From an uncultured Candidatus Saccharimonas sp. (GTDB lineage: Bacteria > Patescibacteriota > Saccharimonadia > Saccharimonadales > OMJO01): DNA of 64,000 nt. How positions within the stretch are numbered: position 1 is the stretch's first letter; each line of letters opens with the position of its first letter. The position numbers were made by a program, and so were the translations under genes. The DNA lies in contig CALRAM010000001.1 in assembly GCA_943353165.1 (NCBI GenBank), positions 173,803 to 237,802 of the forward strand. The letters run 5' to 3'. The notes below the pieces were generated by a model. The model was not told where the DNA came from, did not search any database, and worked only from the letters and a program-made list of their open reading frames with translations. This document shows positions 2,992 through 36,156 of this stretch, one piece after another.

Positions 2992-3705
2992 ATGCCGTAC
3001 CCTCAACGCCTACCCATAATAAACTCTGATGACGGGCAATGGGGCGATATCCTAAATCAGTACCTCAAAAAAGAACATTTTGACGATGGTACCAACAACC
3101 CCGTAAATGGAGGACATCAAACCATCACCATAGTGGCAGGTACGGCTGGTGCTGGTACTGCACCTATAAAATTCGCATCAGGCACGCTGATGACAACTGC
3201 CGAGGCCGGTGCCATGGAGTTCCTGTCTGATAAACTGTACTTTACTATTACAACTGGTACGGTTCGTCGGACCGTAGCTATCTACGATGACAGTAGTGGT
3301 GCTACAGGCGACATCTATTACAGGACAGCTGGCGGTTCTTTTAGCAGGCTAGGGGTAGGTGCTTCGGGAGAAGTCTTGAAGGTTAGCGGAGGGTTGCCTT
3401 CCTGGGGAGTGGTAACCAGCAGCACTTTTTCTACTAGCACGAAAACCGCAGACTATACGATAGCCACGCCAGATACGGTGGTGCTAGTTGACGCTACCGC
3501 TGGAGTCATAGTCATCACTCTGCCCGTAGCCAGCACAGCTAGTGGTTACAGGTTTTTTGTCAAAAAGATAGATTCATCTGCAAACACAGTTACAATAACT
3601 AGATCTGGGGCCGACAACATAGATGGTGGGACCACGGCAGTCATTTCCGTACAGTACACCAGCATAACCATAGTAAGTAACGGAACAAATTGGTTTATAA
3701 TATAA
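2992..3705 (+). CDS. Hypothetical protein, phage tail-fibre-like, no signal peptide
   Basis: 237 aa, Gly/Thr/Ala-rich. The segment AGTAPIKFASGTLMTTAEAGAMEFLSDKLYFT resembles N-terminal regions of phage fibre proteins as I recall them. No signal peptide or TM helix. Confidence 0.4.
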   Translation: MPYPQRLPIINSDDGQWGDILNQYLKKEHFDDGTNNPVNGGHQTITIVAGTAGAGTAPIKFASGTLMTTAEAGAMEFLSDKLYFTITTGTVRRTVAIYDDSSGATGDIYYRTAGGSFSRLGVGASGEVLKVSGGLPSWGVVTSSTFSTSTKTADYTIATPDTVVLVDATAGVIVITLPVASTASGYRFFVKKIDSSANTVTITRSGADNIDGGTTAVISVQYTSITIVSNGTNWFII

Positions 3706-3726
3706 CGAAAGCTAAGAGGTAAAGAC

Positions 3727-4407
3727 ATGTCCTACAATCCAAACAATCCAAATGGTCAAAACACAATGGCAAACTCTGCGCCTGTGACTATAGCCAGCGA
3801 CCAAACAGCCGTGCCTGTCAGTGCCACAACTTTGCCGTTGCCAACTGGTGCAGCTACCGAAACAACGCTGGCTTCTATAAAAGATACAGCAGGTATCAAA
3901 AAGATAACAGATGCATTACCAGCAGGTACAAACCTATTAGGCAAAGTTGGTATAGATCAAACAACACCCGGCACAACAAACCTAGTAGCAGCAAACATTA
4001 CTCAACTAGCGGGGACTGCCACAGCCGTTGGTGTCGGTGCTTCAAGTGCGGGTACAGCACGTGTAGTACAGGCTAATGACGCTGGCAAGACAATTCAATC
4101 TAAAGCTGGAACAGTTGCTATAAGTGGTGATAATACCATTATAAATGCTGGTACTAACAAGCTAAAAATTAAAGCGTTTTCACTAACGACTACATCTACC
4201 GCTGCTGTTACCTGTATATTCAAATCTGGTGCGACCGTACTTTGGCAAGTAGTATTACAAGCACCGACTGGTGTCAGCGTTGGTGCTAACCTGGTAGTAC
4301 CTGCTCCAGATTACATATTTTCAACAGCTAGTGCTACACTATTAAACTTAAACCTAAGCTCGGGACAGACAATACATTATTCAGTATCTTATTACGACGA
4401 GGCATAA
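3727..4407 (+). CDS. Hypothetical protein, phage structural-like, no signal peptide
   Basis: 226 aa with an AAGAGG SD. The Ala/Thr-rich N-terminal half (LPLPTGAATETTLASIKD) is followed by a beta-rich C-terminal domain. It lies 21 nt after the upstream gene and 3 nt before the next. Confidence 0.4.
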   Translation: MSYNPNNPNGQNTMANSAPVTIASDQTAVPVSATTLPLPTGAATETTLASIKDTAGIKKITDALPAGTNLLGKVGIDQTTPGTTNLVAANITQLAGTATAVGVGASSAGTARVVQANDAGKTIQSKAGTVAISGDNTIINAGTNKLKIKAFSLTTTSTAAVTCIFKSGATVLWQVVLQAPTGVSVGANLVVPAPDYIFSTASATLLNLNLSSGQTIHYSVSYYDEA

Positions 4408-4410
4408 CAT

Positions 4411-7400
4411 ATGCAGCAAGACGGAACTATTTATACGGCTAAACCCGCAGATTATACAGAAATTGTTGTCGGTGATGAAAAGCAACCAGAGTTTTATCCC
4501 CGCGTCAAAATTAAGAAATGGGATAATGAAGTCAATCTATCCGTTGGATTAACTAACCCGATTGCTGGATCTAATGTAGTACAAGAGGGCGAACAAATCA
4601 CTTGGTCTAACTCTGATACTGAAGCCCGTTTTTATCCGATTAATGCTTCTGTAATGCCAGCAGCAACAGGTATACGTAGGATAATGAAGAATAAGTTTAT
4701 TCAGCCCTATGAGGCTAGTGCCGAGTACGAGTTTATGCGCCATAGGGCAAATCGACTATTAACAATCATTGACATTGCTACGTACATTACTCCACCGATG
4801 CTTATGCATTTTGATGCCATGCCTACTGGTCGATATACCGAAGTAGAAGATGATGGTTATGCTATAGATTATGATTATGCTGATAAATCGGCATATCATC
4901 CCGATGATATGCTAATGCCAAAAGTGGGAAGGATACCGGCTAACAGGATATATTCTCCTTACACCGCTTCTGCTAACCCTTATTTTGCGGACGAGGGTCT
5001 AGTCAATGTTGATATCCAGTATGGTTTTACTGATGTACCTGGTATTGAAAATGTTTGGTGTGATTCCATTGTTGAAGTTCTAGCAAATCACGGTGTTGAA
5101 GTTATTCGCCCGACCAAGAGAACCAAGTTGTATTTCAAGCACAAAGGGCGGCTAGTCAAGTTTCATAGCGCAGAAAATGCTCGTGGTGTAGTTGCTTGTT
5201 ATATCAATTTGAATTGTATGTACAACAAGGCTTATGATTACTATAAGCCTGGTGTAGAGCACGACGTGCGCGATGAGTATGCTTATGGCTTACAAGTTGC
5301 TTATCCAGAAATAACTATTGATATTGTTAATGAAGTCGTGGGTTTGTTTGCTGAGAAACTATCTCTTCCTATAGACGACACGGAGTATAGTGACGCTGAA
5401 TGGGAATCTATAAGGGCTATAATTCCCAAGCATAAGGATGTTGCTTGGATACGGGAGGCCAAACGACAAGACGCTAACTGGTTTTATACTGTTCCTAGAG
5501 ATGGTTTTGAGTTTGAGTTTGATGTATATGAGAAGCCAGACACAAACATATTTGATCTTTCGATCACTACTAAGGGTTTGGATTTTTATAGACAAGAAGC
5601 CTTAACTCCTGAAGAGATAGAGGAAGGTTTCTCGCGCGACCCTGATGTGGTTGGCAGTTATGCTGTCTATCATTCTGAGATTAAATATAACAACGAGTAT
5701 CAGACTGGTAAAGCTTTTCATATTTATCGCCCAATAGCCAGAGACGCTAACGGAATAGCTTATTTTTGCGATATGGATATTGATATAGAAAATAGCATTA
5801 TGCGAATTACAGTGCCACAAATATTTTTAGACGAAGCCACTTATCCCGTTATCATTGATCCTACCTTTGGTTATGGAAGTGTGGGAGCGAGTGCGACTGG
5901 TTTTGGTAATCAGATTATGGGGACAGTTCAGACTATGCCTGAAGCTGGTTATGTGACCTCTATGACGGCTTATATTTCAACATCCAATAGTTCTGTCGAC
6001 ACATATAATTTTGAGTTTGGACTTTATGATACTTCTGGCAATTACTTGGCTCAGAGCGGCAACACATCAACTACGGCTAATTTGAACTCATGGTCTACTC
6101 TTAATTTAAATTCTGCTTATAATCTACCTTCGGCTTCTTATGTGCTGTCTACGTGGGGTAATATTGTTTCAGGCACTTATTCGTCTCCTTCTACGGGTAT
6201 CATGACTATTGCTTATGATTCTACAGTTGGTAAAACTTCTAAATATGCTTCTGCTGCGTACAGCGCTGATAATTGGCCTTCTACTGTTTCTTTTACAAAT
6301 TGGTCTGATATACAACTTTCTATTTATGCTACGTATACAGTACCAATTGGTTACAAGTGGCCTGTAATGATGGGTAACTCTGCTGCTTTGGCGTCTAGTA
6401 GTGGTGCTAGGTATGCGCCGATGTACGGTGGATCGGCAACGGCCTGGGCAACAAATGCTTCCGCTACGTCTGTCGTTTCAACATCTGATGCATGGTATTC
6501 TGACTTTAGGTTTGATTTAACTACTGCACCTGGTGGTGTTACTGCCAGAACAATGTCTGTTTCTGAAAATATACCAGCAACAATAACTGGTGCAGCAGTA
6601 ACAGCTACTAATTCGACAGATGTAGTATACTTAAATGCTGGAACTAGCCTGTATATTGGAAATGCACCGACTGGTACACCAGCCAGCTCAACTGGTAACA
6701 AATGGCGACTAAATGTAAGCAGTACATATCAGGCTTGGTATTCAACTTCAATCTCAGCCCTGAGTACCACAGCTAATAGGTTTATGGGAGTACAAGATGG
6801 AAAAGGACTTAGTACAACGGCGGCATCTGCTACTTCTACAATGCCTAACGAACCTGGCACAATTAGAAACGCTCGCTGTAAGATCGTAGGTGGCACGCTG
6901 GGTTCAGGCTCTTATACTATCACTTTGGTTAAAGGTGGTATTGATACATCTATTATAATGACGCTAAACAGCGCTACTTCTTTCGCCACCGATACTGATA
7001 CTGTAGCTGTAACTAATAGCAATACACTTTATTGGAAAATTGTACCATCAACCCCAGATGCTGGCGTATGGGTAGCTATATCTTGTGAGTACGAGTCAAC
7101 AACACCAGGGCGTGGAATAATCTTTGGTGGCGTTAGTACCGCTGTGTCTGGTACTACATATTCATCGTCTTTTGATGCCTGGAACGCCACCGAAACGCTT
7201 ATATCCGCTAGGGCAGTTACGCACACAATTATCGCGTTGCGAGCCGATTTATCTGTTGCACCAGGCTCTACCAACACTCGAACGCTAACATTTAGAAAGA
7301 ACGCTGCCAACCAGACACCAGCAATTACAATAACCAGTACAGCAGTAACAGGAAGCTGGTCTGGTAGTCTGGCTGTTGCCACCGATGATTTAATAGATGT

Positions 7401-33607: not shown

Positions 33608-34027
33608 ATGTCCCAAACTATTTCAGATGTCCAACCAAATCCACTATCTGCTAGAGCCAAGCGGATTCTATTAATAGAAGATGAACACTTTATATCCGAA
33701 TTGTACAACCGAGCACTGACAAGAGCTGGCTATGAAGTCACAACTATTATAGATGGTATAGATGGCCTCAAAGAAGCTCAGACCAATAAGTACGACATAA
33801 TAATGCTAGACATAATGATACCAAACCTCATGGGAACAGATATCCTGAAACGGCTACGCGACCCCAGACAAATCCCCCCAATACGCAGCAAAATTATAAT
33901 GTCCACCAATCTAGATCAAGGCGAAGAGGGCAGGGCCGAAACTGAAAAGCTAGCAGATGGTTACATCATCAAAGCCGATGTAACCCCAAAAGAGCTGGTC
34001 GCCTACCTGGCAAAAATTAAACTATAA
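33608..34027 (+). CDS. Single-domain response regulator (receiver only)
   Basis: LLIEDEH, phospho-acceptor context DIIMLDIMIP, IMSTN, YIIKAD. No output domain. Confidence 0.85.
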   Translation: MSQTISDVQPNPLSARAKRILLIEDEHFISELYNRALTRAGYEVTTIIDGIDGLKEAQTNKYDIIMLDIMIPNLMGTDILKRLRDPRQIPPIRSKIIMSTNLDQGEEGRAETEKLADGYIIKADVTPKELVAYLAKIKL

Positions 34028-34082
34028 AATCCATAAATTTCCAGACTTGTAACGATGCCTCAAAAGCCCCAGAATATAGGTT

Positions 34083-34289
34083 AGTCATGTGAGTATGACC
34101 CACTCTCTGGTGGGCATCTACTCTCAGACTTTATTCAAACTCTAGGAGAGCATACTTCGGTCCCTGCAAACCTCAATTACAAATTCAACTGATTGCCAAT
34201 GAAGTCGCCGCTAGAACGGTTGCGTGCTCTTCGGTAACAGTCATACTATTCAAACCCGTTCACTGGTAAAAACATTCACCAGTTTTTTT
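34083..34289 (+). ncRNA. Candidate ~205-nt sRNA or 5' leader preceding the mini-ORF/dinB operon
   Basis: Possible promoter TTGTAA-17-CAGAAT at about 34048-34076. Several hairpins are present (34099-34114 CCCAC/GTGGG, 34121-34150). Long-range pairing AGTATGAC (34092-99) with GTCATACT (34240-47). Ends in the terminator at 34262-34289. Confidence 0.35.
34262..34289 (+). terminator. Intrinsic terminator-like hairpin + T7
   Basis: ACTGGT (34262-67) pairs with ACCAGT (34278-83) across a 10-nt loop. The T-run runs 34283-34289. It lies 16 nt upstream of the AAGGAG SD of the next gene. Confidence 0.5.
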
Positions 34290-34317
34290 GTAATTTTCTT
34301 AAACAAGGAGTTTGGAC

Positions 34318-34563
34318 ATGATTAACCAAGAAATCGAGATCAACGCTTATCAATTCATCAACCGCCGTGGCGTAAGTGGTGTGCCCCGCATCATAACAGT
34401 AGAGAACCAGCGCTATTCGTTTGTTGACTCTGGGCTGCAATACTTGATCCAAAAAGGACAACACCTAATTCGTCTGTTTGACATGACAGATGGTCAGCAA
34501 ACCTACCGTCTGCGTCTAGAAGACGAATGCTGGACTTTGGTGGGAATAAAACCAACCGTCTAA
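34318..34563 (+). CDS. Small hypothetical protein, paralog A of a tandem pair upstream of dinB
   Basis: AAGGAG SD 7 nt upstream of ATG 34318; the track lists TTG 34312. Shares VP.I...N..Y......G....I..GQ.L...F...D.....RL.L.....WTL..I with the next ORF. Confidence 0.55.
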   Translation: MINQEIEINAYQFINRRGVSGVPRIITVENQRYSFVDSGLQYLIQKGQHLIRLFDMTDGQQTYRLRLEDECWTLVGIKPTV

Positions 34564-34572
34564 GGCAACCCA

Positions 34573-34839
34573 ATGCGCGAAAAAATAAACGAAGAAATCA
34601 GCGTGGTTATGTATTACAGTGCTCGAAAGAGGCTGGCCGTGCCATACCTAATAAATTGGCAGAACAGGGAATACATGGTGGGCAAAATAGGCTACCGCCA
34701 CGCTATACGGGACGGCCAAACTTTACACCATATTTTTGAACTGGTGGACAAAGAAAATACGCTGTGGTTTAGGCTAAACCTGGATACCAGCAATCTACAT
34801 TGGACGCTGGAGGCGATCAGCGATGGACACGCCAATTAA
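34573..34839 (+). CDS. Small hypothetical protein, paralog B; overlaps dinB start
   Basis: 88 aa, clearly paralogous to 34318..34563. Its 3' end overlaps the dinB start by 17 nt. Confidence 0.55.
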   Translation: MREKINEEISVVMYYSARKRLAVPYLINWQNREYMVGKIGYRHAIRDGQTLHHIFELVDKENTLWFRLNLDTSNLHWTLEAISDGHAN

Positions 34840-36081: not shown

Positions 36082-36156
36082 TGGTGATCCCGAGGAGAAT
36101 CGAACTCCTATTGCCAGGATGAGAACCTGGTGTCCTAACCGTTAGACGACGGGACC
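36082..36156 (-). tRNA. tRNA-Glu (anticodon CUC), CCA encoded
   Basis: The reverse complement reads GGTCCCG TC GTCT-AACGGTTA-GGAC A CCAGG-TTCTCAT-CCTGG CAAT AGGAG-TTCGATT-CTCCT CGGGATC A CCA. Confidence 0.93.

Follow-up and report, generated by a model that had tools for sequence, protein, structure and literature searches.

In the 64-kb window of Saccharibacteria DNA analyzed here (the window being the whole stretch, in whose numbering all positions are given), two small ImuB-C family proteins and a Y-family DNA polymerase, which together represent a known module, appear to be subject to a structured RNA leader in place of LexA. We consider it probable that a structured attenuating leader, the two ImuB-C proteins (open reading frames ORF1 and ORF2) and a Y-family translesion synthesis (TLS) polymerase make up one unit, and the promoter, leader, ORF1, ORF2 and polymerase gene most likely form a single transcription unit of this genome (Table 1). 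The identification of the proteins rests on homology and synteny; the structure of the leader is established by comparison with related loci, and its function is what we infer from it. Error-prone polymerases are drivers of mutagenesis and adaptation and are normally under tight LexA/SOS control. Here, in the ultra-small, host-dependent Saccharibacteria, an ImuB-C and PolY module has no adjacent lexA and stands behind a conserved pseudoknotted leader with a terminator-like hairpin.

Judged from their sequences, ORF1 and ORF2 are standalone ImuB-C domain proteins (GSU0042-like) and thus belong to a known family, not a new one. They carry no catalytic motif. Aravind et al. (2013) described the GSU0042-like proteins as standalone ImuB-C, homologous to the C-terminus of ImuB and "most frequently combined with" DinB (PMC3765255); Timinskas and Venclovas (2019) treated standalone ImuB-C as a partner of DinB-type polymerases (PMC6511836), and a survey published in NAR in 2026 lists ImuB-C among the putative PolY-binding regulatory subunits, as a beta-barrel without structural relatives (PMC12926913). 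The occurrence in Saccharibacteria and the Candidate Phyla Radiation (CPR), the tandem duplication and the lexA-less operon are unmentioned in PMC3765255, PMC6511836 and PMC12926913. The CPR proteins are linked to this family by the profile-profile alignment (hhalign) of the CPR family with the family of the Geobacter lexA-imuB-C-polY operons, which has a probability of 98.6% and an E-value of 5.7e-16 over 81 columns. A gene of the Geobacter type was found by tblastn with the family consensus on plasmid pSD of Geobacter anodireducens: an 84-aa ORF between lexA and dinB, which begins 4 nt after lexA and overlaps a frameshifted dinB. In our set this operon (lexA/84-aa imuB-C/dinB) occupies positions 4389-6480 of locus L056, with the dinB frame broken into two parts (5252-6118 and 6094-6480), the cause being a frameshift or an error of sequencing; no gene is given there in the PLSDB table.

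The original prediction had viewed the two small proteins as a distinct accessory family for translesion synthesis. The connection with translesion synthesis holds, given the strict linkage to a Y-family polymerase described below, while the notion of a distinct, new family gives way to membership in ImuB-C. The absence of similarity to UmuD/LexA, also claimed earlier, is borne out: Pfam yields no Peptidase_S24 match in ORF1, ORF2 or 118 family members, and there is no Ser-Lys dyad. YolD (PF08863) does not match ORF1 or ORF2 at E≤1 and is absent from the 25 commonest families among the 118 members, and no usable match to either ORF was obtained from Pfam, NCBIfam or PHROGs. A recurrent domain signal is that of DUF6504 (PF20114), which has weak, colinear matches in 32 of the 118 members (best E 1.2e-5); the matches listed score 13-17 bits, below the gathering threshold of 24.2 bits, and ORF1 and ORF2 themselves have no match to it at E≤1. 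The C-terminus of the ImuB of Sinorhizobium meliloti pSymA likewise matches PF20114 weakly, below threshold. A literature search for DUF6504/PF20114 found nothing. The AlphaFold2 model of ORF2 (pLDDT 90.5) is all-beta with six strands, and W77 and W29 are nearly invariant across the family. A Foldseek search of the PDB with this model gave a best E of 0.12 with a TM score below 0.4, the matches being to strands of serpins and lipocalins, and a sequence search of the PDB with the small ORFs gave noise only; an all-beta model without a PDB neighbour agrees with the "novel fold" published for ImuB-C (PMC12926913). Two long proteins, P0246 and P0264, were considered as family members and rejected, being unrelated and apparently repetitive.

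That the 81-aa and 88-aa proteins are paralogs, as had been predicted, is supported in three ways: they are 33% identical in a MAFFT alignment; their Smith-Waterman score is 92, as compared with 23.9±4.3 (maximum 48) in 2000 shuffles; and ORF1 matches at E 2.6e-16 a family hidden Markov model (HMM) from which the two window proteins were left out. BLASTP gave no alignment of ORF1 with ORF2, a null result that we take as an artefact of the tool because it is contradicted by the alignment, the shuffles and the HMM. Both genes are under purifying selection: compared with orthologs sharing 62-67% (ORF1) or 75-77% (ORF2) of their residues, the two ORFs have 45-56 nucleotide differences at third and 7-17 at second codon positions (against relatives of ORF1, 53-56 of its 81 codons differ at the third position and 13-17 at the second), and it is this third-position excess that points to selection on the proteins. 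A profile search recovered 467 cluster representatives, nearly all of exactly 88 aa, and those that were aligned share 71-85% identity with ORF2. When 1.8 billion representatives (50% clustering) were searched exhaustively with an HMM, 343 relatives were recovered, nearly all small, standalone and of about 80-90 aa. ORF1 is identical to the NCBI/JGI protein P0005, labelled "Candidatus Saccharibacteria bacterium".

For the study of gene neighbourhoods we used 54 loci taken from species-representative genomes, of which 53 have DNA downstream of the 88-aa gene. In all 53 a Y-family polymerase gene lies directly 3' of it, including a metagenome-assembled genome (MAG) of Woesebacteria and MAGs labelled Gammaproteobacteria. 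Retention next to dinB and purifying selection, proposed in the original prediction as a check on the two genes, are therefore both found. The ORF1-like paralog is present in only about 12 of the 54 loci, mostly just upstream of ORF2, and is detached in three (L002, L003 and L012). In the window ORF1 and ORF2 are separated by a 9-nt spacer, and the 17-nt overlap of ORF2 with the start of dinB, noted earlier, is seen identically in about 24 related loci; the short spacer and the conserved overlap suggest coupled translation and a fixed stoichiometry of the products. As regards taxonomic labels, the contigs L050 and L051 (labelled uncultured Gammaproteobacteria), L005 (Burkholderiaceae) and L015 (Sulfotelmatobacter) carry an imuB-C/dinB pair of the Saccharibacteria type; since this pair is 49-78% identical to that of the window, the contigs are probably mis-binned or mislabelled.

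The polymerase matches the Pfam families IMS (PF00817, 2e-34) and IMS_C (PF11799, 4e-16), and the catalytic residues D15 and D111-E112 can be read from its translation, together with a C-terminal extension of about 50 aa that contains QLGLF, a clamp-binding-like motif, and DxVNDRYG. The best NCBIfam Pol IV model scores 191.8 bits against a cutoff of 381; the polymerase belongs to a distinct PolY group. The PolY partners of ImuB-C are expected to carry a C-terminal RecA-NT-like motif or DUF4113 (PMC6511836); in this polymerase DUF4113 (PF13438) has no match even at E≤10, and the RecA-NT-like motif is one that is detectable only at HHpred-level sensitivity.

The segment between the response-regulator gene and ORF1 appears, from comparison with its relatives, to contain a conserved structured RNA of an apparently undescribed motif. 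By nhmmer and BLASTN, many loci have conserved parts of it upstream of the operon, on the + strand. The original prediction had proposed a scan of this gap for RNA families: no known family was found in Rfam 15 (4227 families), the sole hit in the window region being a chance match to flavivirus cHP at E 1.8, and nothing was found at E≤0.1 in the leaders of 8 related loci; a conserved structure is nonetheless apparent by comparison. The folding energy of the whole gap is unremarkable (z of −1.9 for the + strand and −2.8 for the − strand), and the case for structure is therefore made by comparative evidence and not by folding energy. RNAalifold applied to MAFFT alignments recovered just the P1 hairpin and the GAACGG/CCGUUC helix, while the long hairpin P2L needed duplex folding. 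G-U pairs, UNCG loops and the U-run assign the RNA to the + strand, and an RNA from the minus strand, which folds slightly better by energy, was rejected on the same grounds.

The leader is taken to end at the start of ORF1. As for its 5' end, a promoter at about 34048-76 had been predicted and agrees with the comparison: its −10 box aligns with TATAAT/TATACT in the relatives that we call group A (L019, L001, L027, L013, L039 and others), though its score (8/12) is below the scan threshold. In group A these boxes stand 6-8 nt before the conserved start AGYCAUGUG of the leader, and this position, taken with the promoter match, places the 5' end of the window leader near 34083. The first hairpin, P0, has equivalents of different sequence in L038, L007, L019 and L013, as judged by inspection.

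The P1 hairpin consists of outer AGG/CCU pairs, a GCA/UGC helix, a conserved internal loop (U versus CCC), AC/GU pairs and a UUCG tetraloop. Across relatives the asymmetric internal loop (U opposite C-C/A-C) and the AC/GU closing pairs are fixed, whereas the tetraloop reads UACG, UUCG, CACG or UCCG, or is swapped for longer hairpins. In 24 sequences 85.9% of the cells are paired, as against 20-30% when the arms are slid with respect to each other; double changes occur in 6 of 8 pairs, and none of 500 shuffles reaches the observed covariation score. The arms of P2L are complementary over their full length in 28 homologous leaders, with a mean z of −2.7 relative to shuffles in duplex folding, and in half of these leaders (14/28) at most 2 of 200 shuffles are as good; the basal helices, as counted on an unfitted MAFFT alignment, are 66-75% paired, and 8 of 10 pairs show double changes. 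The apical loop of P2L contains a conserved GAACGG, and its complement CCGUUC follows an A-rich connector in 27 of the 28 leaders, 36-62 nt from GAACGG, with 97.5-98.4% of the cells of the resulting helix paired. Since P2L encloses just one strand of this helix, the pairing would be a pseudoknot. Pairing is kept by compensatory changes in L129 (A-U), L137 (C-G) and L131 (G-C) and by a wobble (U-G) in L067; as most of the helix is invariant, the support from covariation is modest. Taken as a whole (P1, the base of P2L and the pseudoknot), the structure is 85.6% paired as against 26-42% when slid, with 12 pairs showing double changes and none of 500 shuffles reaching the covariation score (unfitted MAFFT alignment, 21 leaders). 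About 35 nucleotides of the leader, located in loops and junctions, are conserved; its stems covary.

The last element, P3, is by its sequence an intrinsic-terminator-like hairpin with a U-run attached, upstream of ORF1. The hairpin and T-run described earlier at 34262-89 can be seen in the window, ending 15 nt before the Shine-Dalgarno sequence (SD); our terminator scan missed it because its loop is 10 nt. A counterpart starts 0-2 nt after CCGUUC in about 25 of the 28 leaders, and the 10 nt following it contain 6 U on average. The stems of these counterparts are unrelated in sequence and yet keep their pairing (CUGAC/GUCAG, GCCGA/UCGGC and AACUGA/UCAGUU are examples). P1, P2L and P3 have covariation support, and the pseudoknot has it to a modest degree. 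A different element of the original fold, an 8-bp long-range helix between 34092-99 and 34240-47, did not withstand comparison: it is exact in the window, but its complement is absent from the closest relatives, L007 and L038. The 5' arm lies inside P0 (a hairpin that recurs in L038 and L007) and the 3' arm overlaps the end of P2L; we consider this helix a chance match. It is the exception among the earlier observations, which are otherwise mostly confirmed.

The distribution of the motif bears on whether it acts in cis. The P1 covariance model R1 has a single hit in the window (34140-34181, 39.3 bits, E 1.6e-8) and 35 hits in the 54 loci, each of them upstream of the locus's first ImuB-C gene and on its coding strand, the detached ORF1-like genes of L002, L003 and L012 included; a pattern search added 7 variants with apical insertions. 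Among metagenome contigs the 17-nt core of P1 gave 120 matches. Of the first 100, 21 are full-length with at least 29 bits, and the others score at most 27 bits and are mostly the core only, in unrelated GC-rich coding DNA. Sixteen of the 21 full-length hits are upstream of ImuB-C or dinB, 4 are on contigs that are too short, and the remaining one is in L094, where the motif precedes an operon of a short ImuB-C, a umuD-like and a umuC-like gene. This placement, together with the hits of the P1 model, identifies the motif as specific to operons of ImuB-C and Y-family polymerases. In L094 (53-1022) the order is leader (P1, GAACGG/CCGUU and a hairpin), a truncated ImuB-C-like ORF of 45 aa, and Peptidase_S24-like and umuC-like genes; in the Peptidase_S24-like (UmuD-like) protein the usual serine motif GDSM reads GHHQ.

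The original prediction had left the choice between an attenuator-type leader and an independent small RNA (sRNA). The former is favoured by the conserved structure, the operon specificity and the hairpin with a U-rich end. According to the latter, a trans-acting RNA of about 205 nt with its own terminator would be made, and the operon would be expressed through incidental read-through or from another promoter. A promoter-like site and a terminator-like 3' end of its own would suit such an RNA, as would those relatives whose P1 is separated from the ImuB-C gene by about 700 nt that contain an antisense SRAP gene. However, the motif always has an ImuB-C or Y-family polymerase gene downstream of it on the same strand, the window contains one copy only, and the distance from the terminator to the SD is 15-40 nt, which leaves no room for a second promoter. 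We regard an independent sRNA as improbable, and less likely than a cis-acting leader.

The distance between P1 and the ImuB-C gene just mentioned concerns a family of loci with a SRAP gene (PF02586, E 7e-74) on the opposite strand, directly upstream of the 88-aa gene, which number about 15; they include L024 (3253-3963, minus strand), L006, L007, L010, L011, L012, L016, L025, L029, L030, L032, L047, L002 and L003. There is no SRAP gene in the window. The association of SRAP with ImuB-C/DinB has already been published (PMC3765255).

A second way to remove the RNA from the explanation is to read P1 at the DNA level, as an inverted-repeat operator or a part of a promoter. P1 is indeed an inverted repeat close to a −10-like box. 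In many loci, which we call group B and which lack ORF1, P1 directly follows a TATAAT box, at 8-10 nt, and then a different domain (GUGAUC...CUCAC) is found. Still, the arms vary with compensatory changes that include G-U pairs and the loop is conserved, the opposite of what an operator would show; at the apex there is in every case a UNCG tetraloop or else a variable hairpin, and there is no Cheo-type LexA box. A DNA element is the least credible of the alternatives, and we hold it to be very improbable. As to the boxes themselves, TATAAT/TATACT stands 8-10 nt before P1 in group B and the window has TTTATT at 34130-34135; a second, internal promoter just upstream of P1 may exist in the window.

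With respect to LexA, neither the window nor the 4 kb around the operon in the 54 loci was found to contain a lexA gene, and no Cheo-type LexA box (CGAAC-N4-GTTCG) was found in the leader or near the promoter. LexA control was therefore rejected as an explanation: the window has 11 one-mismatch matches to the box where 19 are expected, none of them in the leader, and no lexA homolog. The lack of both a nearby lexA and a LexA box makes the leader a plausible substitute for LexA control, and within the window and the 54 loci control appears to have moved from LexA to the RNA level. Attenuation by a leader peptide was also rejected, since the only short ORF (at 34095, 16 aa) has no SD; its counterparts in L038 and L007 have different lengths and run through P1.

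As the most likely mechanism we propose that transcription would stop at 34289 by default, and that a signal, whether a small molecule or a protein such as, possibly, one of the ImuB-C proteins, would remodel the domain formed by P1, P2L and the pseudoknot, such that RNA polymerase reads through into the operon. Read-through would lead to the three proteins being made together in a fixed ratio. On the basis of published models, the ImuB-C proteins may then serve the polymerase as small subunits with a regulatory or adaptor role, possibly with RecA, and the tandem paralogs ORF1 and ORF2 may work as a heteromer; for these two proteins a role as polymerase subunits is suggested by analogy with their relatives. 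The outcome would be a LexA-independent control of a mutagenic polymerase.

As to what the signal is, a small-molecule ligand and a protein factor, which may be ImuB-C, seem to us about equally likely, and either is more likely than an independent sRNA or a DNA operator. If the signal were a protein, termination or translation would be set by the binding of ImuB-C, the polymerase complex or some other factor to the P1 internal loop or to the pseudoknot. Feedback control of this kind is known from ribosomal-protein leaders; the motif travels with ImuB-C genes that are detached from dinB (L002, L003, L012); what is conserved of P1 is a small hairpin whose internal loop is asymmetric, as is typical of protein sites; and binding of nucleic acids has been proposed for the ImuB-C domain (PMC3765255). 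On the other hand, RNA binding by ImuB-C is hypothetical, and newer modelling gives ImuB-C protein-protein contacts with DnaE2 and ImuA (PMC12926913). We see an autoregulatory protein site as a tentative possibility, on the doubtful side.

If the signal were a small molecule, P1, P2L and the pseudoknot would be the aptamer for a metabolite of DNA damage or of the nucleotide pool, and the ligand would set termination at P3; this is a more specific version of the explanation that we prefer. The leader has what one would look for in a riboswitch, namely a conserved structured domain with covariation and a consistent gene class downstream: the stems covary around the roughly 35 conserved loop and junction nucleotides, the pseudoknotted fold is directly before the terminator, the element goes with one class of genes, and no lexA gene or LexA box was found. 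Several features argue in the other direction. No ligand candidate is apparent from the gene context, no alternative pairing was identified, and no known riboswitch class was matched in Rfam; the regulated genes are neither metabolic nor transport genes, which is unusual for riboswitches, and the group-B leaders have P1 in common but diverge downstream. We judge a riboswitch in this strict sense unlikely. The broader proposal that the leader is a sensor RNA of a new class, be it a riboswitch or damage-responsive, that gates the TLS polymerase and replaces the role of LexA in Saccharibacteria is, in our view, speculative and somewhat doubtful.

A number of observations weigh against the reading of the locus as an attenuated ImuB-C/polymerase operon. 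The transcription start, the termination at 34289 and the read-through are all deduced from the DNA, the switching step is hypothetical, and inspection found no conserved antiterminator or other mutually exclusive pairing. With 6 bp, a loop of 10 nt and about −5.5 kcal/mol, the P3 stem of the window is weak, and in several relatives the tail is CUCUUU instead of a clean U-run. The pseudoknot can be claimed only modestly, in that most of its helix does not vary and we chose its anchors ourselves; moreover, a 10-nt connector must bridge a stem of about 16 bp, and P2L and the pseudoknot may be alternative and not simultaneous. Several SRAP loci have P1 beyond the SRAP stop, with SRAP between the motif and the ImuB-C gene, which implies either an antisense 5' untranslated region of about 700 nt or an independent role for P1. 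On the protein side, the alignment (hhalign) of the CPR profile with the single C-terminus of S. meliloti pSymA ImuB, although colinear, is weak (E 0.023, 2% probability): the direct link of the CPR family with the ImuB C-terminus is thus weak in our analysis and rests on published searches (PMC3765255).

These results can be set against several known systems. Like the lexA-imuB-C-polY operons of Geobacter and other bacteria, the window has a protein of about 85 aa, all-beta, whose gene lies upstream of, and overlaps, that of an active Y-family polymerase, and the standalone ImuB-C proteins of Geobacter share with those of the window a conserved C-terminal Trp and the lack of a known fold, in addition to the 98.6% profile-profile match. 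The window operon differs in having no lexA, two tandem paralogs instead of one, a Saccharibacteria/CPR host and a structured RNA leader. Weak matches to PF20114 (DUF6504), all of them below the gathering threshold, are seen both in the CPR family and in the ImuB C-terminus of S. meliloti. Unlike ImuB in the ImuA-ImuB-DnaE2 mutasome, the window polymerase keeps its catalytic residues; no DnaE2 or ImuA was seen near the operon, for which no systematic search was made. UmuD (Pol V) and YolD/YqjX resemble the small proteins in that their genes are just upstream of a polymerase and presumably encode a regulatory subunit, whereas ORF1 and ORF2 have no S24 or YolD match and a different predicted fold; a link to UmuD is provided by the metagenome locus L094, where a real UmuD-like gene is downstream of the same RNA motif.

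Among RNA elements, the likeness is to terminator-based leaders (the fluoride, preQ1 and SAM-II riboswitches, and ribosomal-protein leaders), in which a pseudoknotted domain is followed by a terminator-like hairpin and then by the SD, and in leaders of the window type the stems covary and the loops are conserved, as they do there; the window leader differs in matching no Rfam family and in having no identified antiterminator. We know of no riboswitch that controls a translesion polymerase module. With the LexA/SOS control of dinB and imuB-C operons the leader would share its presumed purpose, to keep the mutagenic polymerase off until needed, and it differs from that control in the absence of a lexA within 4 kb (54 loci) and of a CGAAC-N4-GTTCG-type box near the window promoter. 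If the leader is a switch, it would represent a new class of regulatory RNA and a handle on how CPR bacteria decide to mutate, and the ligand or protein that binds it would reveal the signal standing in for RecA/LexA; if it is a sensor RNA, it would be the first RNA-level switch dedicated to error-prone DNA synthesis. The highly conserved 88-aa protein, for which a confident predicted structure is available, and its paralog offer a convenient minimal system for the role of the uncharacterised ImuB-C domain.

Table 1. Features of the ImuB-C/polymerase locus and of its surroundings in the window.
Feature	Position	Strand	Basis or remark
Histidine kinase, 512 aa	32059-33597	+	ORF list
Response regulator, receiver-only, 139 aa, without output domain	33608-34027	+	Pfam Response_reg
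Gap, 290 nt	between response-regulator end 34027 and ORF1 ATG 34318		read from DNA
Promoter-like site: TTGTAA 34048-53, 17-nt spacer, CAGAAT 34071-76	34048..34076	+	predicted function
Putative operon 5' leader RNA, about 235 nt	34083..34317	+	nhmmer and alignment to relatives
P0 hairpin (GAGUAUGACCCAC / GUGGGCAUCUACUC)	34091..34123	+	centroid fold
P1 hairpin with UUCG tetraloop	34144..34173	+	covariation, 24 sequences
P2L long hairpin: 34188-34211 pairs with 34222-34241	34188..34241	+	minimum free energy and centroid folds
GAACGG, conserved, in P2L apical loop	34214-34219	+	
CCGUUC, pseudoknot 3' strand, partner GAACGG 34214-19	34256..34261	+	A-rich connector 5' of it
P3 terminator-like hairpin: ACUGGU 34262-67 / ACCAGU 34278-83, T-run 34283-34289	34262..34289	+	
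SD AAGGAG of ORF1	34305-10	+	
ORF1, 81 aa, divergent standalone ImuB-C paralog	34318..34563	+	
ORF2, 88 aa, conserved standalone ImuB-C domain protein	34573..34839	+	
Y-family DNA polymerase (DinB/PolY-like), 412 aa	34823..36061	+	Pfam IMS and IMS_C
tRNA-Glu(CUC) gene	36082-36156	−	20 nt past dinB stop, convergent with operon

The length of the gap upstream of ORF1, given earlier as 284 nt, is correct only if the gene is taken to begin at the in-frame TTG at 34312 (+), and is 290 nt to the ATG. On the other side of the operon, the terminator scan found no terminator-like site between dinB and the tRNA-Glu(CUC) gene. The neighbourhood is partly conserved, a homolog of the response regulator being present at the equivalent position in about 14 of the 54 loci. 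In L039 the interval between the leader and the 88-aa gene (3460-3949) contains an 83-aa fragment of the N-terminus of a Y-family polymerase (IMS, E 2e-6) followed by a very divergent ImuB-C-like ORF of 85 aa, an arrangement that suggests gene decay or duplication within the island.

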